A stretch of DNA of 64,000 bases from Candidatus Thermofontivivens primus (GCA_031458695.1 JAVKJW010000005.1:20390-84389); one strand, 5' to 3'. Shown: positions 15,876 through 34,704, counted from the first letter of the stretch. Numbers and translations are program-made. Notes: generated by a model from the sequence alone, not told the origin.

Positions 15876-16465
15876 ACCGCGAGCAGCCACGTCTTCATCG
15901 CGTGTTCATCGCCGTGGAGCTTGATCATCAGCTCAGGGAGAAGGTTGTTCATATCCAGCAGGCCCTCAAGGAGTCAGGCGCGCACATGCGGTGGGTCCAG
16001 CCCCAGAACCTCCATTTTACCCTCCGGTTCTTGGGGGAACTCCCTTTGGCTGAGGTGGCCAAGGCAAAGATCGCCGTGCGCGAGGCAGGCCGCAGGGCCT
16101 CTCCATTCGCGATCCATCTCAAGGGGGTAGGGGCTTTCCCTAGCCTGGAGCGCCCCCAGGTGGTCTGGATCGGTGTTGGGGAGGGGGAGGCTGAACTCGC
16201 TAGGCTTGCTGAAGCCGTCAGCCTTTCCCTGGCGCGATACCACTTTCCCAAAGAGGACCGGCCGTTTACTGCCCACCTCACCCTTGGCAGGCTGAAGACG
16301 AGCAGGAACTGGGGGGATCTCGTCCGCCTCCTGCGCTCCCTGAAGGATGTGGATGTGGGCGATCAGCGCGTGGAGGCTATGGTGGTGATGGAGAGCCGCC
16401 TCACTCCGAGCGGGCCCATCTATACCCCTCTGGAGACAGTTCTCCTGGGGGAAAATGGGGCTTGA
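15872..16465 (+). CDS. thpR: RNA 2',3'-cyclic phosphodiesterase / 2'-5' RNA ligase (LigT/ThpR, 2H family).
   Basis: Two H-x-T/S-x motifs (HFTLRFLG, HLTLGRL). GTGA start overlaps the cinA stop, preceded by GGGAGGAG. Confidence 0.8.
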   Translation: MNREQPRLHRVFIAVELDHQLREKVVHIQQALKESGAHMRWVQPQNLHFTLRFLGELPLAEVAKAKIAVREAGRRASPFAIHLKGVGAFPSLERPQVVWIGVGEGEAELARLAEAVSLSLARYHFPKEDRPFTAHLTLGRLKTSRNWGDLVRLLRSLKDVDVGDQRVEAMVVMESRLTPSGPIYTPLETVLLGENGA

Positions 16466-16490
16466 CAATCAAACATATGTTTGGTATAGT
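16462..16490 (+). promoter_or_regulatory. recA promoter (TTGACA, 17 bp, TATAGT) with an embedded palindromic LexA (Cheo-type) box CAAACATATGTTTG.
   Basis: Seen directly: cTTGACAatCAAACATATGTTTGgTATAGT about 30 bp upstream of the recA ATG. The 14-mer is a perfect palindrome of the GAAC-N4-GTTC class (AAAC/GTTT variant). Confidence 0.7.
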
Positions 16491-16516: not shown

Positions 16517-17587
16517 ATGATGAATGAGCGTCAGCGTGCTCTCGAATTAGCCCTCACCCAGATTGAGAAGCAATTTGGAAAAGGATCGATCATGAAACTT
16601 GGCGAGGCAAGCGCCAAGCTCGCAGTGGAAGTGATCTCCACGGGTGCCCTTTCCCTCGATGCTGCCCTTGGCATCGGGGGAGTCCCGCGGGGCAGGGTGG
16701 TGGAGATCTACGGCCCTGAAGCGTCGGGGAAGACCACCTTGGGGTACCACATCATTGCTGAGGCCCAACGGGAAGGGGGAATTGCTGCTTTCATTGACGC
16801 GGAGCACGCGCTTGACCCCAACTATGCCCGGGCGATTGGCGTGGATGTCGACAACCTCTATATCTCCCAGCCCGACTCCGGGGAACAGGCCCTGGAGATC
16901 GCGGAGATGCTTGTGCGAAGCGGGGCTGTGGACGTGATTGTCATCGACTCAGTGGCCGCCCTCGTCCCCCGGGCTGAGCTCGATGGGGAGATGGGGGATG
17001 CTCACGTGGGGCTTCAGGCAAGACTCATGTCCCAGGCGCTCCGCAAACTCGTCGGCGCCATCAGCAAGTCCCGCACCACTGTCGTGTTCATCAACCAGGT
17101 GCGCGAGAAGATCGGGGTAATGTTTGGGAACCCCGAGACCACGACGGGAGGGCGCGCACTAAAATTCTACTCCTCTGTCCGCATGGAGATCCGAAGAACC
17201 GAGAGCCTGAAGTCTGGGGAGGATACAGTGGGCATGCGCGCCCGGGTGAAGGTCGTCAAGAACAAGCTGGCCCCGCCCTTCAAGGAAGGGGAGGTGGAGA
17301 TTCTCTACGGGAAGGGCATTTCCAAGGCAGGGAATATCCTCGACATGGCTGTCTCCACTGGGATCATCACCCGTAGCGGCACGTGGTACACCTATGGGGA
17401 CATCCGGTTGGGCCAAGGGAGGGAGAATGCCCGGGATTTCCTGGAGAGCAACCCTGAGCTTGCCCACGAGATCGAGGACAAAGTGCGGGAGAAACTGGGG
17501 CTTCCTAGGTTGAAGACGGTAGGGGAGGTTAAAGCATCCGACCCGGAGCAGGTACGCAAAGAGCCTCAGGCAAAAGTGAAGGCGTAA
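16517..17587 (+). CDS. recA: Recombinase RecA.
   Basis: 356 aa. Walker A GPESSGKTT, L1/L2 loops. Unmistakable RecA. Confidence 0.97.
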
Positions 17588-17670: not shown

Positions 17671-18312
17671 ATGGTCACCGTTCGACGAATTCGTTCTCTT
17701 CCAGGCGCTGTGGAGAGGGCTATCGTGGAGGTGGAGGGAAAGGGGAGATTTTTGGTCTCAAGAGGGCTTGCGGCGGAGTTAGAAGTAGGGATGGCCCTCG
17801 ATGATCGGCTCCTTAGGAGGCTCGCGAGCGAGGACCTTTTGCACCGTGCGCTGCAAGTTGCTCTCCGGCTTTTACGCATCCGCCTGTACAGCAGGGCAGA
17901 AATGACCCTCCACCTTAAAAGGCGCGGATTCCCTCCCCAGATCGTGACGAATGTGATCCGCATGTTAGAGCAGCAGGGAGTTCTCAACGACCTCCAGTTT
18001 GCCAAGACTTGGATCACTGGGGTCATGGCGAGACGACCAGCGTGGCAGAAGAGGCTAGAAGCGGAGCTACGGGCAAAGGGGGTGGTGAAGGAGGTGATCG
18101 CACAAGCGCTCGATGAGGCCCTCTCCGGGACTACAGAAGTTGAGGTTGCGCGGGAAGTTGCCCTCCGTCGCCTCCGGGCGTATCATCGCTTTCCCCCGGA
18201 GGTGCAACAAAGGCGTTTGATCTCCTTCCTCCAGCGCAGGGGGTTCACTCCCGAGACAGCTACATCTGTGGTGAGGGAGCTTGTGCGGGAGGAAGGATCT
18301 CGTGAATCCTGA
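17671..18312 (+). CDS. recX: RecA regulator RecX.
   Basis: 213 aa, three-helix-repeat RecX family, directly downstream of recA. Confidence 0.85.
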   Translation: MVTVRRIRSLPGAVERAIVEVEGKGRFLVSRGLAAELEVGMALDDRLLRRLASEDLLHRALQVALRLLRIRLYSRAEMTLHLKRRGFPPQIVTNVIRMLEQQGVLNDLQFAKTWITGVMARRPAWQKRLEAELRAKGVVKEVIAQALDEALSGTTEVEVAREVALRRLRAYHRFPPEVQQRRLISFLQRRGFTPETATSVVRELVREEGSRES

Positions 18313-21300: not shown

Positions 21301-21420
21301 ATCGAGAAGGTAGCTAAGGGGATTCGGGCACAGCGCTTTGTGGCCACGCCAGACTTCTACCGGGCGTGCAGGTTTTGTGCTTTCAACCAGATTTGTCCTT
21401 ACACCGCAGCAGGGGAGTGA
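18322..21420 (+). CDS. UvrD/PcrA-type superfamily-1 helicase fused to a C-terminal Cas4/AddB-like PD-(D/E)XK nuclease with a 4-Cys Fe-S cluster.
   Basis: 1032 aa. N-terminal helicase motifs (AGAGTGKTTV, DEFQDTNYAQ, VGDDDQSIYKFRGA, QNYRS, TVHKAKGLEF). C-terminal nuclease (C-x...RWDRVD...IVDFKT...QLAIYALAY...CRFCAFNQIC). Starts 9 nt after the recX stop. Confidence 0.85.
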   Translation: MGKRRHRNLASRTRKGEESEDQLPLGLEPPSVELLHAGLPHESRVAEEPAEFLKELGELSVSRILADLNEEQRRAVTHGEGPLLIVAGAGTGKTTVITRRIAYLIATKRARPREILALTFTDKAAAEMEERVDLLVPYGYADVWISTFHAFGDRILRENALEIGLNPDFRILSKAEQIIFFREHLFDFPLDYYRPLGDPTKYVEAMITLFSRAKDEDVSPEEYLTYAEKLLAEADPTDPEAVQEARRQLEIARTYQRYQELLAKEGLVDFGDLITLTLKLFRERPHVLRRYQEQFKYILVDEFQDTNYAQFQLTKLLASRHENITVVGDDDQSIYKFRGAAISNILNFMDTYPHATQIVLTRNYRSSQLILDAAYRLIRYNDPDRLEVKNQLDKRLFAVHMEGQPVRHLHFDSLSSEADAVASIIAEKVEKGAYRYKDFAILVRSNNDADPFLRSLNMRGIPFHFSGGQGLYQREEIRLVMAFLRSLTNPYDNLSLYHLGSSPLYQIDPGDLARCLAVANRKNRSLEHIFDQLHAYEELEEVSPESRAAIAKLVEDLKEMRSFAQHHVTGRVLYEYLVNRTGYIRRLVASGNVEDEIKVANLAKFFDIVAKVAQLLRYDNVHAFVEYMDKLIEAGDDPTAAELSGPDLDAVHVMTVHKAKGLEFPVVFLVSCVSDRFPTRNRNEGLSLPDPLIKDILPSGDFHLQEERRLFYVGMTRAQKELYLTSARDYGGVRPRKVSQFVLEAMDMPKVDPEVAKASAVEAIERHAPPVVESLMGQPLPEDSPLILSFRQIDDYDTCPLKYKYIHILRVPVMRDHRVVYGAALHEAVREYNRRKARNQPMSLEELISYFERVWTNEGFVSREHEDYRFEEGRQVLRQFFLFEEGSGVTPTLVEMPFSFQLGKTRVKGRWDRVDVHGDEVVIVDFKTSDVRDTKEANRRTRESLQLAIYALAYKEVYGRLPSWVELRFLGSQQVLVGRAEPHEEYIREAIEVIEKVAKGIRAQRFVATPDFYRACRFCAFNQICPYTAAGE

Positions 21421-21872
21421 GCATATATCCCATTTCGTATAGAGAAAACGCCATTCCTACTCTGCGTGGGTATGCTTTCCGCTTCGCGAAGGAGGGGGTG
21501 CAATCGGGTGGGGTCATCGTTAGCCCGTGGAGGGAGGAGTTGATCCGAGCGATTCAAGAGAGGCGGATCCTCCATCTCACCTATCAAAAGAAAGGGGGAT
21601 CTGTGGAGAAGTACGTTATCGCTCCATGGGATTTGGTCCCAGGAGGTGAGACAGGTGAGGAGCTCCTTGTGGCCTTTGCCTATAACCGGAACGATTTCCG
21701 CTCGTTCCGCTTGAGCAGGATCCTGAGCATCCGGGAGCTAGGAGAGGAATTCGACCCACGGGAGTTCTATCCGAGGCTCGCTACGTGGCCTCCTCGTTGG
21801 CATGTCCTGCGCGCGTGGCCCCTTCAGGAAGGCGAATATCCCGCGGGGAAGGGAGGCCTGGGAAGGGGATGA
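21417..21872 (+). CDS. Stand-alone WYL-domain protein (no HTH).
   Basis: About 151 aa. ILHLTYQKKGGSVEKYVIAPWDLV...LLVAFAYNRNDFRSFRLSRILSIRELGEEFDP matches the WYL domain signature. GTGA overlap with the helicase-nuclease stop and ATGA overlap with the next gene. Confidence 0.7.
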   Translation: MSIYPISYRENAIPTLRGYAFRFAKEGVQSGGVIVSPWREELIRAIQERRILHLTYQKKGGSVEKYVIAPWDLVPGGETGEELLVAFAYNRNDFRSFRLSRILSIRELGEEFDPREFYPRLATWPPRWHVLRAWPLQEGEYPAGKGGLGRG

Positions 21873-22981
21873 TCAAGTTGCTCCACCTCTCAGATGTCCA
21901 TCTGGGGGCGCGGTTCCAGATGCTGGGTGAGCGAGGACGAGAACATCGTCGCCAGCTGCAGGAGACCTTCGCTAGGGCCATTGGGATAGCGTGCGAGGAG
22001 CCCGTGGACCTTGTCCTCATCGCTGGCGACCTGTTCGATTCCCCCCACCAGTCAGAATCCACCATCTCCTTTGTGCGCGAACAGTTTCGCCGCCTGGAGG
22101 CGAGGGGAATCCCGTTGTGTCTGATTGCCGGGAACCATGACCCTTTCGAAGAGGGGGGCGTCTACGCGGTCGGACGATTCGAGCAGTGCAGCAACGTCAC
22201 CCTGTTTGGGACCACCCCGGGAAGCAAGGTATTCTCCCAGCTCGACCTCACTGTGTTCGGGAGCTCCCCATCCCCTGGCTCTGGCCGCAGCCCGCTCGCA
22301 GGCTGGAAGGTAGAACGGCAAACGCGCTTTGCTGTGGGCTTGGTCCATGGGAGCATCTACCGTTCAGGGCAAGTGGAAGGCCCAGCGACAATCCACCCCG
22401 AGGAAATCCGGGGTCTCGGGCTCGACTATCTTGCGCTTGGCGACTGGCACTCTTGCCAGCGGGTCCTGGGGCCGCCCACCACTGCTTGGTACTCAGGTTC
22501 CCCTGAGTTCTTAAGCCTCGACCAGGAGGGGGCGGGCCATGTTCTTTTGGTGACACTGGAGGAGCCTGGCTCTGTGCACGTCCGGCCTGTTCGTGTGGGT
22601 CGAAGGTCCTACAAAAAAATTGAACTCGAGATCTCCGCCCTCCCTGTGGAGGAGATCAAGGCCCGGATCCTCCAGGAGGCAGATCCTGATCTCATCATGG
22701 ACGTGATCCTCAAGGGGTTCATCCAGCCCGGGATCTCTATTTCAGCAGCGGAACTGGAAGAGGATCTGGGTGGGCATTTCTTCCGCTTGCGTGTGCGCAA
22801 CGAGAGTTCCCTTCGGCTGGAGGACTTGGACGAGCAGGACTTCCCCGAAGGAACCGTTCTGGGGAGGTTCGTTCGCTTAATGCGAAAGAGAATGGAGGAA
22901 CTAGACCCTGCAGAGCGTCCCCTCCTTGAGGAGGCACTCCAGCTTGGGGTGGGACTTTTGCAGGGGAGGGAGGTCCTCTAG
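21869..22981 (+). CDS. SbcD/Mre11-family metallophosphoesterase nuclease (YhaO-like).
   Basis: MIKLLHLSDVHLG...DLVLIAGDLFD...GNHD calcineurin-like motifs. Translationally coupled on both sides. Confidence 0.85.
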   Translation: MIKLLHLSDVHLGARFQMLGERGREHRRQLQETFARAIGIACEEPVDLVLIAGDLFDSPHQSESTISFVREQFRRLEARGIPLCLIAGNHDPFEEGGVYAVGRFEQCSNVTLFGTTPGSKVFSQLDLTVFGSSPSPGSGRSPLAGWKVERQTRFAVGLVHGSIYRSGQVEGPATIHPEEIRGLGLDYLALGDWHSCQRVLGPPTTAWYSGSPEFLSLDQEGAGHVLLVTLEEPGSVHVRPVRVGRRSYKKIELEISALPVEEIKARILQEADPDLIMDVILKGFIQPGISISAAELEEDLGGHFFRLRVRNESSLRLEDLDEQDFPEGTVLGRFVRLMRKRMEELDPAERPLLEEALQLGVGLLQGREVL

Positions 22982-25146
22982 TGCGCCTTCGTCGCCTTCG
23001 AGTACGACGCTTTCGTCGCCTGCGGGGCTTGGAGATCACCTTCCATCCAGGTCTCAACGTCATCGTCGGCCCGAACGAGGCAGGCAAGTCCACTCTCCGC
23101 GAGGCGATCATCATGGCTCTGTATGGGAACGCCGCGACGACCTCCCAGGCAATCCGGGAAAGCACCCGCTCCTGGGGCTCGGATCGTCCTGCGGTCCTTG
23201 AGCTGGAATTTGAGGCGGACGGGGAGGTCTACACCCTGGGCAAGGATTTCCACGGACGCAAGGTCTTCTTGCGCGACAGCAAGGGGAACAACTGGGAGGG
23301 ACACGCGCGGATCCAGAGGGAGATCGGGACTCTTCTTGGGTTTCCCAACGAAAATCTCTATCGGTCCACTGCGCATGTGGCCCAGGCAGAGCTTGACCGG
23401 CTATCCACTGACACCCCGGATATCGCCAAGGAGCTTTCCAGGATCATCACCGGTGGAGGACAGGATGCGAACGTGGTAACGGTCCTTCACCGGCTTGAGC
23501 AAGCGATCGAAGCCCAACGGAAGGGGCTCCAGCGGTACGCCAAAGATCCGGGGCCTATTAAGCGACTGGAGAACATTGTGACTTCCCTCGAGGGGCGGCG
23601 GGCGGAACTTCTCCAGAAGGCCCAACAGGCCATCCAGAGCCGCAAGGAGATTATCGAGGTGAGCAAAGAGCTTGAACGGGCTGCAACCACACTGACCATC
23701 AAAGACAACCTTCTCAAGGTGAACCAAGAGCTCATGCGCGTTGAGAACCGCCTGCAGGAACTCAAAACACAGGAATCTCAGTTGGGAGACCGGATAAGGA
23801 AAATTCACCAAAACATCCTCAAACTTTCACAGATCAAAGAGGAGATTGCTGCGCTCATTGGGGAGGGAGAGGTTCCAGACGAGGAGACGATGCACAAGCT
23901 CCGGGAAACCTACGCTTTTTATTCCGGCGCAGCATCGCGTGCCGAACGCCTAGCCGAAGAAGTAAGGGCAATGGAGGGAAGCCTCGCTCAGTTCCCGCGA
24001 TTCGCCGGGCGGGCCGTTTCCGCTCTTCTCACCCTCGCGACAGTGAGCCTCATCGCTAGCATGGTCCTCTCCGCGTGGAGGGGGATCGTGTGGGGGGGTC
24101 TTACGGCCCTGCCAGGGGTCCTCTTTCTCCTTTTCGCTTACAATTTCTGGAAAATGGAGGAGGCGCGACGCATCGAGGAAGATCGGCTGGAAGCCCGGCG
24201 AAAAGAGCTGGAGGTCGCGCGCAGGGATGCTGGCAAGTTCGAGGAGGAAATGCGCCAATTGCTCAAGGAACTGAGGTGCAATAGCCTGGAGGAGGCCACT
24301 CGCCGGTATGAGCATTACCAACGCCTTGTCGGGGAGCAAAGAGCCCTTGCGCAGTCCCTCCAAGACCTCCAGGGGGATCAGACGGTAGAGACCTTGCAAG
24401 AACAGTATCAGGATATCCAGCGGGAGATCTTCGTGCGAACGGAATACTTGAAGAACCCAGAGGTAGCGGCGAAGCGCCTTCTCCCCCTCGAAGTGCAACA
24501 CCTAGAGGAAGAGGTGGAACGTCTCAGAACCCAGGTGCGTCAGCTCGAGCAGAGGAAGCAACGGCTTGAGTGGGAGATTGAGCATTACTCCCCCGCCCTC
24601 GAGGAGCTCAAGGAGGTTGAGGAGCAGCTCGACGAGAGCAAGGAGCGCCTCCAGCTGGAGAGGAATCGCCTGCGCGTCTACGAAATGGCCTATGAAGTGC
24701 TACGGGAAGCGCACCAGCAGGTTATGGTCCCTGCCCGGGAGGTGGTCAGCTCCCTGGCAGGGGAATACCTCAAGGTCCTCACGGGAGGACGCTACCATCG
24801 CGTGCGCATGGCCGAGGATTCCCTCCAGGTGGAGGTCTGGGTGGACGAGGCGCAACGGTGGATCGCCCCCAAAGAGCCAGAATTTAGTCGTGGGGCCATC
24901 GATCAAGTCTACCTTGCGACCCGCCTCGCGCTCGTCGAAGTCCTTGCCCAGGGGAAATCCCCGCCCCTTGTGCTGGACGACCCCTTCGTCCACTTCGACG
25001 AGGAGCGGCTCCAGGCTGCCATAGACCTGATCAGGCGGCTTTCCTCCCGTTACCAAGTGCTGCTGTTCACGTGTAGGCGAGAGTACAGCAAGTATGCCGA
25101 CCACCTCATTCACATTGACACCCTCTCGGGGATAGGGATACAATAG
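22981..25146 (+). CDS. SbcC/SMC-like ATPase with long coiled coil and two internal transmembrane helices (YhaN/SbcE-like).
   Basis: 721 aa. N-terminal Walker A (GPNEAGKST), C-terminal signature/Walker B (LVLDDPFVHFD), heptad-rich middle. Hydrophobic pair ...AVSALLTLATVSLIASMVLSAW...LTALPGVLFLLFAYNFW... in the middle of the coiled coil. GTG start overlaps the sbcD-like stop. Confidence 0.8.
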   Translation: MRLRRLRVRRFRRLRGLEITFHPGLNVIVGPNEAGKSTLREAIIMALYGNAATTSQAIRESTRSWGSDRPAVLELEFEADGEVYTLGKDFHGRKVFLRDSKGNNWEGHARIQREIGTLLGFPNENLYRSTAHVAQAELDRLSTDTPDIAKELSRIITGGGQDANVVTVLHRLEQAIEAQRKGLQRYAKDPGPIKRLENIVTSLEGRRAELLQKAQQAIQSRKEIIEVSKELERAATTLTIKDNLLKVNQELMRVENRLQELKTQESQLGDRIRKIHQNILKLSQIKEEIAALIGEGEVPDEETMHKLRETYAFYSGAASRAERLAEEVRAMEGSLAQFPRFAGRAVSALLTLATVSLIASMVLSAWRGIVWGGLTALPGVLFLLFAYNFWKMEEARRIEEDRLEARRKELEVARRDAGKFEEEMRQLLKELRCNSLEEATRRYEHYQRLVGEQRALAQSLQDLQGDQTVETLQEQYQDIQREIFVRTEYLKNPEVAAKRLLPLEVQHLEEEVERLRTQVRQLEQRKQRLEWEIEHYSPALEELKEVEEQLDESKERLQLERNRLRVYEMAYEVLREAHQQVMVPAREVVSSLAGEYLKVLTGGRYHRVRMAEDSLQVEVWVDEAQRWIAPKEPEFSRGAIDQVYLATRLALVEVLAQGKSPPLVLDDPFVHFDEERLQAAIDLIRRLSSRYQVLLFTCRREYSKYADHLIHIDTLSGIGIQ

Positions 25147-25383: not shown

Positions 25384-26916
25384 TTGGTTTCCTACGCGAT
25401 CGCGGCCGGGCTGGGGTTGGTTGGATTCCTCCTTGGATACCTCCTGCGCAGGTTCGTCGCCGAGGCGAAGATTAAATCAGCGGAAGAAGCTGCCCGCCGG
25501 ATACTCGAGGATGCAAAGAAGGAAGCGGAGGCAAAGAAACGTGAAGCGATCCTCGAAGCGAAGGATGAGGCATACCGGATCAAGCGGGAAGCTGAACGGG
25601 AGATCCGCGAGCAACGGGCAGAGATTCAGCGTCTCGAGCGACGTATTGTGCAACGCGAGGAATCCTTGGACCGCAAGGCGGAAGCCTTGGAGCGTCGAGA
25701 GCGTGCCCTCATCCAGAGAGAGCAGGAGGTTTCAAAGGCCAGGGAGGAGGTAGAAGCGCTTCGGAGGGAGCACCGCCTTGAGCTTGAGCGCATCGCAGGT
25801 CTAACCTCAGAAGAGGCCAAAGAGCAACTGCTGCGCGAGATCGAGGCGGAGGTTCGCCACGAGGCGGCCCAGCTCATCAAGAAAGTGGAGGAGCAGGCAA
25901 GGGCAGAAGCCGACCGCCTTGCCAAGGAGATCATTGCCCTTGCCATTCAGCGGTGTGCTGCCGACCACACCGCCGAGGTTACTGTATCGGTGGTCCCCCT
26001 GCCCAACGAGGATATGAAGGGAAGGATCATCGGTCGTGAGGGGCGGAACATTCGTACTCTGGAGACCCTCACAGGTGTGGACCTGATCATCGACGATACC
26101 CCAGAAGCGGTGACCATTTCCTCCTTTGATCCCATCCGCCGGGAGATCGCCAAGATCACCTTGGAAAAACTCATTGCCGATGGGCGGATCCACCCAGCGC
26201 GCATCGAGGAGATGGTGGAGAAGGCGCAGCGGGAACTCGAGGCCAGGATCCGGGAGGAAGGGGAGCGTGCCGCATTTGAGGCGGGGGTCCACGGCTTGCA
26301 TCCCGAGGAGATCAAGTTGCTTGGGCGCCTCCGGTTCCGGTACAGCTACGGTCAGAACCTCCTCCAGCACTCCGTGGAGGTCGCGCTCCTGGCCGGGCTC
26401 ATGGCCTCCCACCTGGGTGCTAATGTAGCCCTGGCAAAACGCGCAGGGCTGCTCCACGACATTGGGAAGGCCCTCACCCACGAGGTAGAAGGGACACACA
26501 GCGCCATCGGGATAGACATTGCCAAACGCTACCACGAGCCCCCGGAGGTTCTGAACGCCATCGCCTACCACCATGGCGAGGAGGAGGCCAAGTGCATCGA
26601 GGCGATCCTCGTCGCTGCTGCTGATGCCATCTCTGCCAGCAGGCCAGGCGCCAGGAAGGAGACTGTGGAGATGTACCTGAAACGCCTGGAGAACCTGGAA
26701 CGCTTGGCGAGTTCCTTCGATGGTGTGGAGAAGGCATACGCTATCCAGGCTGGTCGGGAGGTCCGGGTGATTGTCAGACCCCAGGAGGTGGATGACAGCG
26801 GCGCAGTTCTTCTGGCACGCCAGATCGCCAAGAAGATCGAAGAAGAACTGGAGTACCCCGGTCAGATCAAAGTTACCGTCCTGAGGGAGACGCGTGTGGT
26901 GGAGTACGCAAAGTGA
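25384..26916 (+). CDS. rny: Ribonuclease Y (TM anchor, coiled coil, KH and HD domains).
   Basis: 510 aa. End-to-end similarity to RNase Y ([17 protein letters not shown] motif, HD domain). TTG start. Confidence 0.9.
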
Positions 26917-28687: not shown

Positions 28688-28900
28688 ATGCGTTGCCCGA
28701 AGTGTGGCACGGAGAACCCTCCTGGGAAGATCGTGTGCCGGAAGTGCGGCGTTCGCCTGAGGCCGCAGGCAACGTCCCAGGAAAGTGTGATCGGGGAGGA
28801 AGTAGTGGTGAGGTGGGTCCGTAGGGACCTTGGCCAGCTGGTTGTTGTTCTGGTCATCCTCATCACCTGTGGAGCTCTCCTGGGCTTTCTCTTCCGGTAA
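28688..28900 (+). CDS. Zinc-ribbon microprotein with C-terminal TM helix.
   Basis: 70 aa. CPKCG...CRKCG zinc ribbon, then LVVVLVILITCGALLGFLF. RBS-like AGGGAGG upstream. Ends exactly where selA begins. Confidence 0.5.
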   Translation: MRCPKCGTENPPGKIVCRKCGVRLRPQATSQESVIGEEVVVRWVRRDLGQLVVVLVILITCGALLGFLFR

Positions 28901-30345
28901 TGGGGGCAATGGCCAGGGGAGGGCCCATGGACCCGAAGGCCTCGCTCCGTCAGCTCCCCCAGGTTGAGCGTGTCCTCGCCCATCTGGACGCCGAGGGGTA
29001 TCTTCTCCGCTATCCCCGCGCGCTGGTTGTGGCTTGTGTCCGAGAGGTGCTAGAAAAGAAGCGCCAGATCCTCATGAGGGAAGATCTCCCCACCGTAGAT
29101 GTCTCCATAGAGGCCATCCTCCGCGAGGCCCGTGCTCTGATCGCACGAAAAAGCCTACCCTCTCTGCGAAGGGTGATCAATGCCACTGGAGTCATCCTCC
29201 ACACCAATCTTGGTCGTGCACCCCTGAGCGAGGCCGCAAGGAGGGCGGTTGCAGAAATGTCCAGCTATTCCACCCTAGAAGTCGGCCTGGAGGGGCGGGG
29301 AAGAGGCTCTCGGCATGCCCACATCGAGTCCCTTCTTGTCCAGGTGACTGGGGCAGAGGCAGGGTTTGCTGTGAACAACAACGCCGCAGCTGTCCTTCTT
29401 GTCCTGACGGCCCTTGCCCAGGGGAAGGAGGTCGTTGTGTCCCGGGGAGAGCTCGTGGAGATCGGAGGGACCTTCCGGATGCCCGATGTCATGGCGGCAA
29501 GCGGGGCCAAGCTCGTGGAGGTGGGAACGACAAACAAGACCTACGTGTGGGATTATGAGCGTGCCATTACCTCCCAAACGGCCCTTCTCCTGAAGGTTCA
29601 CCGAAGCAACTTCACTCTCCGGGGATTTGTGCATGAGACCGCCCTCCCAGAGCTCGTCCAACTCGGGAGGCGCGCGGGTATCCCAGTGATGTACGATCTC
29701 GGTAGCGGTGCCCTCCTGGACCTTGGCCGCCGTGGTCTACCCCAGGAACCAACTGTTGGGGAGGCGGTAAAAGCAGGGGTGGATGTGGTGACCTTCAGCG
29801 GGGACAAGCTCTTGGGAGGTCCCCAGGCAGGCTTGATCGTTGGCCGGAAAGAAGTCCTCAGGCGGATCCAATCCCATCCCCTTGCCCGAGCCTTGCGCAT
29901 CGACAAGCTCAACCTTGCTGCTCTCGTAGCAACCCTTCGCCACTACCTTGATCCCGAACGTGCGTGGCAAGAAGTACCCGTCCTACGCATGCTGTCGGCT
30001 CCCCAGGAGGAACTGGAAAGGCGGGCTCGCCAGCTTTGTGGAAGATTAGAGGAGATCCTCAGGGGAACTGCAGAGACGACTGTGGTAGAGACGGCCGCTG
30101 AGGCCGGCGGGGGCTCCCTCCCTGAAGCCCATCTTCCCTCCTATGCGGTGGCCATCCGTCCCCTTACCGAACCCGTGGAAAAATGGGATCAAAGGTTGCG
30201 CTCCCTTCCCCTCCCCCTCATCGGGGTGATTCGGGAGGATGCCCTCCTCCTTGATGTTCGTACACTTCTCCCCGGTGAGGAGGAGGAAGTGGTCGAGGTA
30301 TTTCGAACCCTCCTTACCCCGGATACACGAGAAATCATCACGTGA
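28900..30345 (+). CDS. selA: L-seryl-tRNA(Sec) selenium transferase.
   Basis: PLP-dependent SelA family (...[18 protein letters not shown]...). Start may be the downstream ATG ([10 protein letters not shown]...) at about 28927. Confidence 0.85.
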
Positions 30346-30352
30346 AACGGCT

Positions 30353-32299
30353 ATGCGGCAGTTCGTCATTGGTACGGCAGGCCACATCGACCACGGCAAG
30401 AGTGCCCTCGTGAAAGCTCTTACCGGCATGGACCCCGATCGGCTAGAAGAAGAAAAGCGACGGGGGATGACCATTGATCTTGGGTTTGCTTATCTTGACC
30501 TCCCAAGCGGGCGAAGGGTTGGGATCGTGGATGTCCCTGGACACGAGAGACTCATCCGGACGATGCTTGCCGGTGCGACTGGGATCGATCTTGTCCTTTT
30601 GGTCGTGGCAAGCGACGAGGGAGTGATGCCCCAAACGCGGGAACACTTGGACATCCTGCGTTTCCTGCACCCGAGCTGTGGCGTCGTGGTGCTCACTAAG
30701 ATCGACCTCGTTGAAGATCATGCTTGGCTCGCCCTCGTCCAAGAAGAAGTTGCTCAGCTGGTGGAGGGGACCTTCCTGCAAGGAATGCCGGTTATCCCTG
30801 TCTCCGCCAAGACCGGGGAAGGCCTCGACGTGCTCATACGAACCATCGATAAGCTTCTCGACGAGATCCCTCTACACCCCCAGGAGGGCCCTGTCCGTCT
30901 CCCTGTAGACAGGAGTTTCGTCATGCCTGGATTTGGGACTGTGGTCACAGGGACGCTCTGGAGCGGGCGGATCCGGCCGGGAGACGTTCTGGAACTGCTT
31001 CCGTCAGGGAAAGAGGTGCGTGTTCGAGGCATCCAGAGTTATGGGCAGTGGGTGGAGGAGGGAATCGCCGGGACCCGTGTTGCCCTGAACCTCGCGGGAA
31101 TCTCCAGGGAGGAGGTCCAACGAGGGGACGTCCTTGTCACCCCTCAAGCCTTTACCCCTGCGACGCTCCTCGACGTGCGCGTCGAGCTTCTTCCTCAAGC
31201 ACCGCCCGTTGCCCATATGACCCGCCTGCGCTTCTACCTGGGGACAGCAGAGGCGTTTGGTCGGCTTGCCCTTCTGGACCGGGAGGTCCTTGGTCCCGGG
31301 GAGAGCGCTGTTGGCCAGGTCCGGCTGGAAACCCCTGTTGTGGCAGCACGCGGGGATCCATTTGTCCTTCGACGCTACTCCCCCCTCCAGACCATCGGTG
31401 GGGGAAAGGTAATCTCCTCCGCTCTCGCGAAGCGCAGGCGAGGGGATTCCTGCGCTCTGGCAGAAATCCTCGCCCTGGAACGAATGGGTGAAGATGAGCT
31501 TGCCGAGAGGTTCACCTGGGAAGCAGGGTATAGGGGGATCACAATGGAAGAACTCTCCCAGCGCCTAGGACTCGCCCTGCCCACGGTCTACGAACTCATC
31601 CAGAAAATGTCCAGCGCGGGGTCAGCGATCCTCCTTGGGAGCAGGATCTTCCATTCGAAGGTTTTGGAAGACCTCAAGGAGGCGATCCTCTCGGCGCTCG
31701 CCAGCTACCACAGCGAGGCTGCATGGCGAGTGGGGATGCCCCGGGAAGAACTCAAGAAAAGGGTGTTTCGGGGTGGGGATGACCGCCTCTTTTCCCATGC
31801 GTTGGAGGACCTCCAACGGGAAGATCCCCTGGGAGGGCTCTCTGGGGAACCCTCCCAGGGAAAGGTGGCACTTAAAGGTTCGTTGGTCCGCCTCGAGGGT
31901 CATCGCCCGGTGAGAACAGAAGTGGAGGAGAGGTGCCTCCAGCACCTTCTCCGCATCTACGCCGAAGGTCGCTTCACGCCTCCTTCCAAGGAGGAGGCCT
32001 TTGCGCTCCTCCCAGAAGATCGGGCCGTCCTAGAACGCATGTACCAAGCTGCCTTGGACGAGGGCCTCCTTGTCGAAGTCAGACCTGGCATGGCATTCTC
32101 CCACCAAGCCCTGGAGGAGATGAAGATCATCGTCCTCCGGCATATCCAGGAGCATGGAGGGATCACCGTAGGAAACCTCCGTGATCTCCTTGCAACCAGC
32201 CGGAGGTATGCCCTCGCCGTTCTGGAACATTTCGATGCCTTAGGCCTCACGAGGCGCGTAGGAGATCGGCGGATTGCTGCCCACCGTTGGTTGGAGTAA
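30353..32299 (+). CDS. selB: Selenocysteine-specific elongation factor SelB.
   Basis: [25 protein letters not shown]... GTPase domain, beta barrels and C-terminal winged-helix domains. Start is 8 nt after the selA stop. Confidence 0.9.
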
Positions 32300-32351
32300 A
32301 TTCCGCTGGTTTTTCCAGAAGCCCAGCAAAACTCGATCAAGATTTTGCTGG

Positions 32352-32669
32352 CTACTCAGTGGGCTTTTCCTCTGGAGCCGCTTTCGGCCGTGCAACCCTC
32401 GGGCGTGCCCTGCGTACAGCACGCCTGCGCACTGCTCTCCTCCCCCTCACAGCCCGTCGGCGTGCGACGCGTCGGACTGGTGCAAGCAAGGATCGACCTT
32501 TCGTTAAAGCGCCGTGGTAGCGCGTCGCATCTTGCGAAACTTGCTTCAAACGTTGAATGAGCGTTGCAAGTGCCTCTGCATTGTTCTCTAACCAGAACCT
32601 TCGGATGGACATCTCAATTGCCACAAGGGAGTTCTCAAGCTCTTTATCAACGACTTTTGCACGTGCCAT
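32352..32669 (-). CDS. Hypothetical small protein in an AT-rich island: helical N-terminus, Arg-rich C-terminal tail.
   Basis: Strong RBS (ACAGGAGGTGACAGAGT ATG). N-terminal roughly 60 aa (MARAKVVDKELENSLVAIEMSIRRFWLENNAEALATLIQRLKQVSQ...) lie in low-GC DNA. The distal Arg/Ala/Val-rich tail lies in GC-rich DNA and may be read-through noise, so the true stop is uncertain. Confidence 0.3.
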   Translation of the reverse strand: MARAKVVDKELENSLVAIEMSIRRFWLENNAEALATLIQRLKQVSQDATRYHGALTKGRSLLAPVRRVARRRAVRGRRAVRRRAVRRARPRVARPKAAPEEKPTE

Positions 32670-32943
32670 ACTCTGTCACCTCCTGTGATTTTCTTTCTCC
32701 AAAACGCTCCCCCTTTCCTCGTGCTTCTCCAAAAAACAGATTAACACCGAATACTGCTTCCTACAATCCAAGCGGATCATCGTCCATCAAAGAGTTGGTA
32801 AATGTCCGGGCATATATTTTGATAAATTTGCCGTGTTGCGTCGATCATGGAAAGGAACGGATGGTTTTGTGAGTATCAAGAAGGGGTCAAACGTCATGAA
32901 GAAGAATGACACTCACAAGAGTTGCTGAGCGGAGGGAGGGACG

Positions 32944-34581
32944 ATGCCCTATCGGATGGGCGCACACAGCTTGGCGAAGGCTTTCAGGAGAGAGGGAGTG
33001 GATTGTATCTTTACCCTCTGTGGAGGACACATCATGCCGATCTACGAGGCGTGCCTGGACGAGGGGATCCGTATCATCGACGTGCGCCATGAACAAGCTG
33101 CTGCGTTCGCGGCAGATGCCTGGGGGCGGATGAAGCGTCGGCCTGGCGTTGCGGTGGTCACTGCAGGGCCTGGGATCACGAATACCGTCACAGCCGTTGC
33201 CAACGCATTCAAGGCAGGAACGCCGCTGGTCGTGATCGGCGGACAGGCCCCTCTCCTCCGTCTAGGGAAGGGAGATCTCCAAGAACTCGATGCGTTGAGC
33301 ATCCTGCGACCAATCACCTGTTGGGCCGCTCGCGCATGGACCGCTAACCGCCTTGCGGAGATGACCCACACCGCCTTTCACGAGGCAATGTCCAGGCGCG
33401 GGCCGGTTTTCCTGGAGGTCCCCATGGATGTCCTCCTCGAACCCGCCGGCGAGGAATCCCCCCAAATGCGACCAGGCCCCATGCAGCTCCATGGAGAGCC
33501 CTCCAAGGTGAAGGAGGCTGCCCAGCTCTTAGCGACCGCGGAGCGGCCTGTCCTCATGGGAGGGAGTGACCTCTGGTGGTCGGGAGCGGAGGAAAGCCTT
33601 ATGCGCTTTCTCGAGGTCCTTCCCTTGCCTGTCTACCTTAACGCAATGGGGCGGGGGATGCTTCCACCCGACCATCCCTGCTTCTTTGCCCTTTCCAGAG
33701 GGTGGGCACTGCGGGAAGCCGATGTCGTCCTTCTCATCGGGACCCCCATGGACTTCCGGTTAAATTTCGGGCGGGCCTTTGGAGAGAAAGCGAAAATCGT
33801 CCAGGTGGATCGAAATCCTGGGAACATTGGACAGAATCGGGAGGTTACCATTGGAATCTGGTCGGACGCACGCCCTTTCCTGGAGCTTGTAGCAGAGGAG
33901 ATCGCTGCGATCCCCCACCGTCGGAGCTCCCGCTCCTGGGTAGAGGCTGTCCGGCAGATCGAGCAACAACGACGGCAGGAACGGATCCCTCTCGAGGAAT
34001 CCGAAGCAATCCCCATTCATCCACTTCGCCTGGCCAGGGAGCTTGCAGATGTTTGTAGTGAAAACACGATCTTTGTCGGGGATGGCGGAGATGTGGTGTC
34101 GATCGCGGCGACGATCATTCACCCGTACCGGCCAGGGCATTGGCTTGATCCGGGGCCGATGGGCACCCTTGGGATGGGCGTTCCTTTTGCTCTCGCGAGT
34201 AAGCTGGCCTATCCGGAGAAAGAAGTGATTGCGCTCTTTGGCGATGGGGCTATCGGGTTCTCCATCATGGAGTACGATACCGCCGTGCGCCATGGAATTC
34301 CCTTCATTGGGATTGTCGGCAACAACGGGCAGTGGGCGCAGATCCGGTATGGCCAGGTTAGCATGTTCGGGGAAGAGCGTGCCGTCGCTACGAAGCTGCG
34401 AGTGGCGCGATATGAGCAGGTCGTGGAGGCATTGGGGGGCTATGGGGAGTACATTGAAGATCCGCGGGAGATCCGGCCTGCCCTCGAGCGCGCACGAGCA
34501 TCGGGAAAGCCGGCGCTCCTCAACGTCCGGCTGGATGAGACGTACTACAGTGACGCGACAAAACGCCTCTATAAGCTCTGA
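32944..34581 (+). CDS. Thiamine-diphosphate-dependent enzyme of the acetolactate synthase / oxalyl-CoA decarboxylase family.
   Basis: 545 aa. N-terminal Pyr domain (…DVRHEQAAAFAADAWGRM…GPGITN…), central domain, C-terminal PP domain (GDGAIGFSIMEYDTAVRHGIPFIGIVGNNGQW). Confidence 0.85.
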   Translation: MPYRMGAHSLAKAFRREGVDCIFTLCGGHIMPIYEACLDEGIRIIDVRHEQAAAFAADAWGRMKRRPGVAVVTAGPGITNTVTAVANAFKAGTPLVVIGGQAPLLRLGKGDLQELDALSILRPITCWAARAWTANRLAEMTHTAFHEAMSRRGPVFLEVPMDVLLEPAGEESPQMRPGPMQLHGEPSKVKEAAQLLATAERPVLMGGSDLWWSGAEESLMRFLEVLPLPVYLNAMGRGMLPPDHPCFFALSRGWALREADVVLLIGTPMDFRLNFGRAFGEKAKIVQVDRNPGNIGQNREVTIGIWSDARPFLELVAEEIAAIPHRRSSRSWVEAVRQIEQQRRQERIPLEESEAIPIHPLRLARELADVCSENTIFVGDGGDVVSIAATIIHPYRPGHWLDPGPMGTLGMGVPFALASKLAYPEKEVIALFGDGAIGFSIMEYDTAVRHGIPFIGIVGNNGQWAQIRYGQVSMFGEERAVATKLRVARYEQVVEALGGYGEYIEDPREIRPALERARASGKPALLNVRLDETYYSDATKRLYKL

Positions 34582-34609
34582 GAAATGTGATCCCAATCGA
34601 AGGATCGCC

Positions 34610-34704
34610 GGAGGGGGATGGGGCCTGGTGGTCCTCCTGGTCTTCAAAACCAGTGACGAGCCTGGATGGCCCGTGGTGGGTTCGATTCCCACACCCCTCC
34701 GCCA
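34610..34704 (+). tRNA. selC: tRNA-Sec (selC), anticodon UCA.
   Basis: Hand-folded. 8-bp acceptor GGAGGGGG / (A)CCCCTCC (terminal G.A mismatch). Anticodon stem CTGGT/ACCAG with loop CTTCAAA. Long variable arm TGACGAGCCTGGATGGCCCGTGG. T-arm GTGGG-TTCGATT-CCCAC. Discriminator G plus encoded CCA. Classic bacterial 8/5 tRNA-Sec architecture. Confidence 0.85.

Follow-up and report, generated by a model that had tools for sequence, protein, structure and literature searches.

Mre11-Rad50 and SbcCD are textbook soluble complexes for which a zinc hook is essential. A gene for a related ATPase was analysed within a 64,000-nucleotide stretch of Candidatus Thermofontivivens primus DNA (GCA_031458695.1 JAVKJW010000005.1:20390-84389), called the window here and numbered from its first letter. 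The product, of 721 amino acids (aa), is a member of the known but poorly studied YhaN/SbcE family, as a short-armed Armatimonadota variant that has lost the H-loop histidine. At its midpoint, where Rad50 and SbcC carry the hook, it has a pair of hydrophobic, charge-free segments. We consider it likely that these segments form a transmembrane hairpin and that the protein, together with the product of the gene directly upstream, makes a membrane-tethered DNA-end-processing complex of the Mre11-Rad50 type. The YhaN family corresponds to COG4717, and B. subtilis YhaN is annotated in sequence databases with predicted transmembrane helices.

SbcE and SbcF of B. subtilis act in double-strand-break repair and in transformation, and gather at the cell pole that holds the DNA-uptake machinery; the mutants are sensitive to DNA damage (PMC2811018). 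The genes were described in the order yhaO-yhaN-yhaM (PMC2811018). SbcE has a predicted mass of 106 kDa with heptad regions of ∼300 aa, no CxxC motif, and a 'unique central domain' of which the first half is hydrophobic; the central domain, full-length SbcE and SbcF were all insoluble on overproduction (PMC2811018). Literature searches on membrane anchoring of YhaN/SbcE returned nothing past this 2009 paper, which does not propose it. The original prediction, in which anchoring of the coiled-coil apex was put forward 'as proposed' for YhaN/SbcE, therefore overstated the literature, which gives a hydrophobic, insoluble central domain only (PMC2811018). In all other points that could be checked the prediction was borne out.

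The ATPase is encoded by one open reading frame (ORF), exactly at the position first given and with both of the hydrophobic peptides first quoted present in the translation. Its start codon, GTG, shares bases with the TAG that ends the nuclease gene upstream (TAGTG). A copy with 99% identity (P0001) was present in a metagenome-assembled genome named Armatimonadota bacterium, and homologues with 27-38% identity carry the JGI label 'uncharacterized protein YhaN'. The Pfam profiles AAA_23, SMC_N and AAA_27 (PF13514, the YhaN AAA domain) were all matched above cut-off, the last with 43.8 bits against a cut-off of 22. The NCBIfam profiles for Rad50 (PRK03918, 131.5 bits, cut-off 700) and sbcc (TIGR00618, 35.8 bits, cut-off 478.5) were both matched below threshold. 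The nearest sequences in the PDB were archaeal and Thermotoga Rad50 heads, covering residues 1-145 and 552-717; E. coli SbcC and YhaN structures were absent among the PDB sequence matches at E <= 1e-3. An AlphaFold2 model built from a 56-sequence alignment had a mean predicted local distance difference test (pLDDT) score of 85. Foldseek ranked a Rad50 chain first against this model (7zr1, Chaetomium MRN complex), followed by SMC proteins. The head is, on these matches and the predicted fold, of the Rad50/SMC type and split between the N- and C-termini, in agreement with the SMC/SbcC-like assignment first made.

Within the 56-sequence alignment P31, N32, E33, G35 and K36 of the Walker A region are invariant, as are D673 and R676. 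The Q-loop residue is Q135 and the signature motif is FSRGAIDQ (residues 635-642). The Walker B motif ends in DD instead of DE in 56/56 sequences. The H-loop position reads FTCR (R699) in the window's protein and is serine in 31 of the 56; the histidine is missing in this clade of ∼720-aa ATPases. Walker B and the H-loop position fall within residues 662-700 (nt 24964-25080). Between the two head halves the AlphaFold2 model places a pair of helical arms of about 144 and 210 residues, with a loop separating the last ascending helix (301-335) from the first hairpin helix (342-367). The ascending arm takes up residues 192-335; the descending one, at 391-600, exceeds it by ∼60 residues and has additional helices at 436-498. 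These surplus helices (436-464, 469-491 and 493-498; nt 24286-24474) have no obvious partner in the model, and may be a helical element inserted at the coil break at residues 295-300.

The hairpin lies at relative position 0.49-0.52 of the protein, its exact midpoint. The sequence there runs FPRFAGR, AVSALLTLATVSLIASMVLSAW, a single R, GIVWGGLTALPGVLFLLFAYNFW and KMEEARRIEEDR. Charged residues make up one third of the ATPase, and its longest uncharged runs are the 22 residues 345-366 and the 23 residues 368-390, with R367 alone between them. The same segments contain the top two 19-residue Kyte-Doolittle peaks, 2.18 (345-363) and 1.91 (368-386). Apparent free energies of membrane insertion (dGapp) were calculated with an approximate form of the Hessa biological scale that takes no account of position. 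On this scale helix 1 scored -0.38 and helix 2 +1.56 kcal/mol, against a median of about +23 for the ATPase and +9.8 for its best segment outside residues 330-400. Among other proteins of the window taken as controls, RNase Y gave at its N-terminal anchor a Kyte-Doolittle value of 1.85 and a dGapp of +0.96, and the soluble neighbours all gave a dGapp >= +4.6. In composition-preserving shuffles a 46-residue window with one charged residue or none occurred in 1/100,000, and the 46-residue hydropathy of the hairpin was equalled in 6/20,000. The 19-residue peak alone discriminates weakly (RecA 1.77, putative SelA 1.75; the shuffle maximum averages 1.55), and the argument for transmembrane segments is therefore based on the length of the charge-free run, dGapp and family conservation. 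Being free of charged residues, the segments are unlike coiled-coil heptads. The full 721-aa sequence contains no CxxC, its only cysteines being at 433 and 698. The hairpin as an observation is thus confirmed, far beyond chance.

The hairpin was then found in nearly all of the family. An exhaustive search with the ATPase gave 446 clusters at E <= 1e-30. A mid-length hairpin was present in about 105 of 120 relatives retrieved with a word index, at relative position 0.47-0.52 whatever the length of the protein between 700 and 1200 aa, and no hairpin-bearing relative in this set had a CxxC near mid-length. Among representatives of 50%-identity clusters it was called in 139/149 (mean hydropathy >=1.3 over 42 residues, with at most 3 charges), and most of the others were just below threshold at the same position. 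It was also present in 58 of 60 full-length ORFs from species-representative genomes of at least 12 phyla; these included Armatimonadota, Chloroflexota, Bacillota, Desulfuromonadales/Geobacteraceae, Deferribacteres, Rhodothermales and Terriglobia, as well as Eremiobacterota, Binatia, Eiseniibacteriota, Patescibacteria, Wirthbacteria and others. Over 247 members the hydrophobic span bounded by charges was 42-54 residues (median 47), and the numbers of residues before and after it (medians 337 and 335) were correlated with r = 0.84. The sequence of the hairpin varies across the family and its hydrophobicity is kept. Three relatives (P0082, P0092 and P0102) lack the hairpin and carry the canonical hook, a CxxC, at relative position 0.50; the placing of the hydrophobic pair at the zinc-hook site in the original prediction agrees with this.

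The Bacillales reference for comparison was a Listeria monocytogenes chromosome of 2.9 Mb that is mislabelled as a plasmid in PLSDB (NZ_CP030101.1, L081). It encodes consecutively a 411-aa phosphoesterase, a 907-aa ATPase and the YhaM exoribonuclease. Because YhaM matched its NCBIfam equivalog (578 bits, cut-off 460) and the order is that of B. subtilis, the locus was identified as yhaO-yhaN-yhaM. Listeria YhaN has a hairpin at residues 429-470 (relative position 0.50), and hairpins are likewise present in the Paenibacillus and Monoglobus homologues. A profile of the ATPase clade was aligned to the C-terminal head of Listeria YhaN by hhalign with a probability of 99.6% (E 2.9e-24), and BLASTP of the ATPase gave 29% identity over 198 aa (E 4e-22). 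The C-terminal heads of both have the motifs LTxGxY, LSxxTxxQxYLAxRxAL, DD[PG]FxxFDxxR and QVxxFTC.

The window's ATPase therefore shares with YhaN/SbcE these motifs, a split Rad50-like head, a long antiparallel coiled coil, a mid-length hydrophobic segment in place of CxxC, and an Mre11-like phosphoesterase gene directly upstream, which bears out the relationship first suggested. It differs in size (721 aa, where Listeria YhaN has 907 aa and B. subtilis SbcE a predicted 106 kDa), with arms about half as long, and in its H-loop, where R699, or serine in most of the clade, replaces the histidine that Listeria YhaN retains as TCH. It has no yhaM downstream, but stands in a recA-recX-helicase/nuclease string followed by rny, and its host is an Armatimonadota bacterium, not Gram-positive. 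The ∼300-aa heptads and ∼106 kDa given for SbcE are not found in the 721-aa protein. Since hairpin-bearing relatives range from ∼610 to 1200 aa, these values are probably a trait of the Bacillales proteins and do not define the family.

The 370-aa phosphoesterase encoded upstream is presumed from its sequence to be the nuclease partner of the ATPase; the two genes are translationally coupled through TAGTG. The SbcD-like partner of the original prediction is thus confirmed. It is calcineurin-like, with Mre11 and SbcD as the closest PDB sequences, and is 29% identical to Listeria YhaO (E 2e-24). Motifs I-V are retained (D9/H11, D54, N89/H90, H160, D192/H194). Motif V reads GDWH (residues 192-195, nt 22442-22453), and GHWH in 45/52 relatives. 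Most of the Chloroflexota partners have GTHD at motif III, the canonical form of which is GNHD. Of the related loci for which upstream sequence was available, almost all have a homologue of the partner gene immediately before the ATPase gene.

The pair thus has in common with SbcCD and Mre11-Rad50 an ABC-ATPase head with Walker A, Q-loop, signature and Walker B, an intramolecular coiled coil, a phosphoesterase with Mre11 motifs I-V, and Rad50 as the best match in both structure and PDB sequence. The ATPase differs from them in having no zinc hook, a Walker B with DD rather than DE, no H-loop histidine, scores far under the NCBIfam Rad50 and sbcc cut-offs, and an apex that is predicted to lie in the membrane.

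The positions of the features are collected in Table 1. The nuclease and ATPase genes are the last of four with overlapping stop and start codons, after a helicase-nuclease gene and a WYL-domain ORF; the ATG of the nuclease gene overlaps the stop of the WYL ORF (ATGA). The nuclease domain of the helicase is Cas4/AddB-like and its cysteines are spaced as in an Fe-S cluster motif (CPLKYKY ... CRFCAFNQICPY). Two other Armatimonadota loci (L001 and L002) keep the order recA-recX-helicase/nuclease-sbcD-like-yhaN-like ... rny-ymdB, with the helicase-nuclease upstream of the pair. The WYL ORF is missing from these closest relatives and the flanking genes abut there. In one Wirthbacteria locus (L076) a gene related to the helicase-nuclease follows the pair. 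The recA-recX-helicase/nuclease string points, by the sequence assignments of its genes, to recombinational repair.

Table 1. Positions of the features of the ATPase gene and its surroundings, in nucleotides of the window
Feature	Position	Strand	Basis
Near-consensus promoter ahead of recA-recX	16462-16490		Consensus scan
recA	16517-17587	+	Translation; homology to L001, L002
recX	17671-18312	+	Translation; homology to L001, L002
UvrD/PcrA-type helicase fused to C-terminal PD-(D/E)XK nuclease, 1032 aa	18322..21420	+	Pfam UvrD-helicase, UvrD_C, PDDEXK_1
WYL-domain ORF	21417..21872	+	Pfam WYL; likely GTG start, GTGA overlap with helicase stop
Mre11/SbcD/YhaO(SbcF)-like metallophosphoesterase gene, 370 aa	21869..22981	+	Pfam Metallophos; sub-threshold sbcd/Mre11 matches
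YhaN/SbcE-family Rad50-like ATPase gene, 721 aa	22981..25146	+	One ORF, GTG start
N-terminal half of ATPase head, residues 1-190	22981..23550	+	Beta-rich in AlphaFold2 model; Rad50 head matches residues 1-145
Walker A GPNEAGKS, residues 30-37	23068-23091	+	Within N-terminal head half
Ascending coiled-coil arm, helices 192-294 and 301-335	23554..23985	+	DSSP on AlphaFold2 model
Predicted transmembrane helix 1, residues 345-366	24013..24078	+	19-residue Kyte-Doolittle peak, dGapp, 22-residue uncharged run, AlphaFold2 helix 342-367
One-residue turn R367, predicted on outer side of cytoplasmic membrane	24079..24081	+	AlphaFold2 helix break at residue 368
Predicted transmembrane helix 2, residues 368-390	24082..24150	+	19-residue Kyte-Doolittle peak, dGapp, 23-residue uncharged run, AlphaFold2 helix 369-430
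Descending coiled-coil arm, residues 391-600	24151..24780	+	DSSP on AlphaFold2 model
C-terminal half of ATPase head	24781..25143	+	Signature, Walker B, motifs shared with Listeria YhaN
Walker B LVLDDP, residues 662-667	24964-24981	+	C-terminal head half
Promoter-like site TTGACA-18-TACAAT, 11/12 matches to sigma-70 consensus	25115..25144	+	Consensus scan only

The genes for RNase Y (25384-26916) and YmdB come after the ATPase gene. The promoter-like site in the final 30 nt of the ATPase coding sequence probably drives the RNase Y gene, as judged from its sequence and position, which suggests that rny is transcribed separately. A functional link between the ATPase and RNase Y, comparable to the placing of yhaN beside the HD-domain RNase gene yhaM in Bacillales, was considered and rejected as probably incidental, with a promoter preceding rny. 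In B. subtilis too recA and rny-ymdB are neighbours, so the repair genes may simply be a later insertion between recA and rny-ymdB.

Clustering of the ORFs of 80 related loci gave no third gene conserved across phyla, and only the nuclease-ATPase pair was conserved. The clusters were otherwise lineage-restricted neighbours (EamA-like and MFS membrane proteins in Chloroflexota) and antisense artefacts of GC-rich sequence. In 16 Chloroflexota loci (including L071 8451-9260) the pair is followed at once, in the same orientation, by an ORF whose translation resembles by eye a multi-pass (EamA/DMT-like) membrane protein. The Paenibacillus homologue is followed by a convergent gene (L072 9151-10131) for which EamA was confirmed by Pfam. 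The EamA-like neighbour is probably lineage-specific.

Further downstream, 28900-34704 resembles a selenocysteine gene cluster. A 481-aa ORF (28900-30345) was read as putative SelA from its translation alone, a 686-aa ORF (30239-32299) is a candidate SelB, and a tRNA-SeC lies at 34610-34704. Just upstream of the putative selA, a 70-aa ORF (28688-28900, + strand) combines a zinc-ribbon pattern (CPKC...CRKC) at its N-terminus with a C-terminal segment that is very hydrophobic (19-residue Kyte-Doolittle value 3.0, dGapp about -4.4).

In the membrane-tethered complex that we favour, the polypeptide would pass from the N-terminal head half up a coiled-coil arm of ∼150 residues and outward through the cytoplasmic membrane (345-366), turn on R367, cross inward (368-390) and return, as the other strand of the arm, to the C-terminal half of the head. 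The AlphaFold2 model carries the predicted second transmembrane helix directly on into the descending arm, as one helix (369-430). With a hairpin that goes out and back, both head halves would therefore be cytoplasmic and the apex, the site of the zinc hook in Rad50 and SbcC, would be buried in the bilayer; with an outer turn of one residue the hairpin would serve for anchoring rather than sensing. On the pattern of Mre11-Rad50 and SbcCD, a dimer of the nuclease should bind the heads of two ATPases. Such a complex would act as an ATP-gated DNA-end or hairpin nuclease, its heads some 15-20 nm beneath the membrane. The arms would be kept together by their confinement in the bilayer, whether or not the helices touch directly, in place of the hook or in addition to it, and DNA ends would be processed near the envelope as part of recombinational repair.

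A bolder version for the whole family, with its 50%-identity clusters numbering in the hundreds and its members spread over at least 12 phyla, would give the lipid bilayer the role of the zinc hook. Membrane-anchored arms and ATP-engaged heads would then form a ring closed by the membrane, with a function in handling DNA at the membrane rather than in general double-strand-break repair. We regard this version as unlikely. If it is true, clamped DNA would be physically tethered to the cell envelope, and the complex would handle incoming transforming or conjugative DNA, or membrane-attached regions of the chromosome. That the short-armed clade has lost the H-loop histidine would then suit a clamp that is slow and long-lived, rather than a processive nuclease.

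Several observations weigh against a membrane-tethered complex. Helix 2 is marginal alone (dGapp about +1.6) and contains Pro-Gly, and confidence in the hairpin region of the AlphaFold2 model is only 61-73. Motifs of the small-xxx-small (GxxxG) type are not enriched in the hairpins of the family, where they are a little rarer (1361) than in shuffled sequences (1437 +/- 25), so nothing supports direct dimerisation of transmembrane helices. A 1149-aa protein on Sphingobium cloacae plasmid pSCLO_3 (L082 2037-5486), named 'YhaN family protein' by NCBI and encoded beside a 'DNA repair exonuclease', has neither a hydrophobic hairpin nor CxxC; the label 'YhaN family' therefore also takes in apparently soluble, hook-less relatives on conjugative plasmids. 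The AAA_27 match of the window's ATPase is confined to profile positions 1-61 of 206. Because the H-loop histidine is lost and Walker B is DD and not DE, ATP turnover may be slow, altered or nil. SbcE-YFP was described as forming foci on the nucleoid that moved from pole to pole within a minute, and its authors did not read them as membrane localisation (PMC2811018).

Highly mobile nucleoid foci of this kind would suit a protein in which the hydrophobic segment stays outside the membrane, as a buried dimerisation core, hinge or hook substitute made of four helices from two subunits, and which acts on the nucleoid as SbcCD does. The moderate model confidence and the marginal second helix are in keeping with it, and in the 2009 paper the region is presented as a new 'central domain' (PMC2811018). 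A soluble core would however be expected to have conserved packing residues and some polarity. Instead the sequence is free to vary, uncharged and hydrophobic over its 42-54 residues, with a composition of 20% Leu, 18% Ala, 14% Gly and 13% Val in 247 members. Lys and Arg exceed Asp and Glu on both flanks (2.6 against 1.4 and 3.5 against 1.5 in the 149 representatives), and dGapp is comparable to that of the RNase Y membrane anchor. Both the domain and the full-length protein of B. subtilis, moreover, were completely insoluble (PMC2811018). A length that fits two crossings of a bilayer, free sequence, positive flanks and a position at the fold-back of the protein favour a transmembrane hairpin over either a soluble domain or heptads, and we regard the soluble core as quite improbable. 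That the hydrophobic pair arose by chance, or through an annotation artefact such as a frameshift or the fusion of two genes, has a negligible probability. The single Kyte-Doolittle peak of 2.18 is just ∼2 standard deviations over the shuffle mean, but the charge-free stretch is as rare in shuffles as given above, both head halves are required for one ATPase and lie in one frame, and full-length homologues at 99%, 74%, 73% and ∼40% identity have the same layout.

The same anatomy could also serve another job, the surveillance of incoming foreign DNA, with a membrane-proximal nuclease directed against linear phage, plasmid or transforming DNA as part of a defence or uptake module. The membrane would be the first site at which such DNA appears, a gene with a WYL domain, common in defence contexts, is in the string, and PADLOC gave partial matches of the ATPase head to Lamassu LmuB (79 bits, residues 395-710) and to the N-termini of Gabija GajA and Septu PtuA (residues 1-57). 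No known defence architecture was matched, however: LmuA and LmuC were absent in the PADLOC search and among the neighbours, and unlike those systems the pair has no cognate partner genes, a housekeeping context (recA, recX, rny, ymdB) that is kept in other Armatimonadota, and a transmembrane hairpin, which is not described for those families. The closest relatives lack the WYL gene. In at least 12 phyla the pair is found on chromosomes, among varied neighbours that are not island-like, and the B. subtilis mutants are sensitive to DNA damage (PMC2811018). Coverage of the ATPase exceeds 36% in just one plasmid record (Monoglobus, H1), and matches in phage collections are confined to its C-terminal 15-19%. 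Surveillance is therefore improbable as the function of the pair. Identity with a defence system was rejected, PADLOC having returned partial head matches only, with the one plasmid record and no phage record covering most of the protein. The phage-collection matches are several short unannotated records named 'Listeria phage' and 'Staphylococcus phage', which we suspect to be host chromosomal DNA including yhaN.

Membrane insertion of the hairpin, on sequence statistics, family conservation and predicted secondary structure, thus remains part of the reading that we consider likely. The main results of the survey are that the hairpin is near-universal in the family, spans 42-54 residues and stands at the protein midpoint in at least 12 phyla; the window's ATPase gene is otherwise an ordinary family member. 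As a compact variant of 721 aa, its product may lend itself better to biochemical work than the B. subtilis protein, which is insoluble. A widespread paralogue with a membrane hairpin in place of the hook would imply a membrane-proximal branch of DNA-end processing, studied in the one paper found, in B. subtilis in 2009, where its membrane aspect went unrecognised (PMC2811018).

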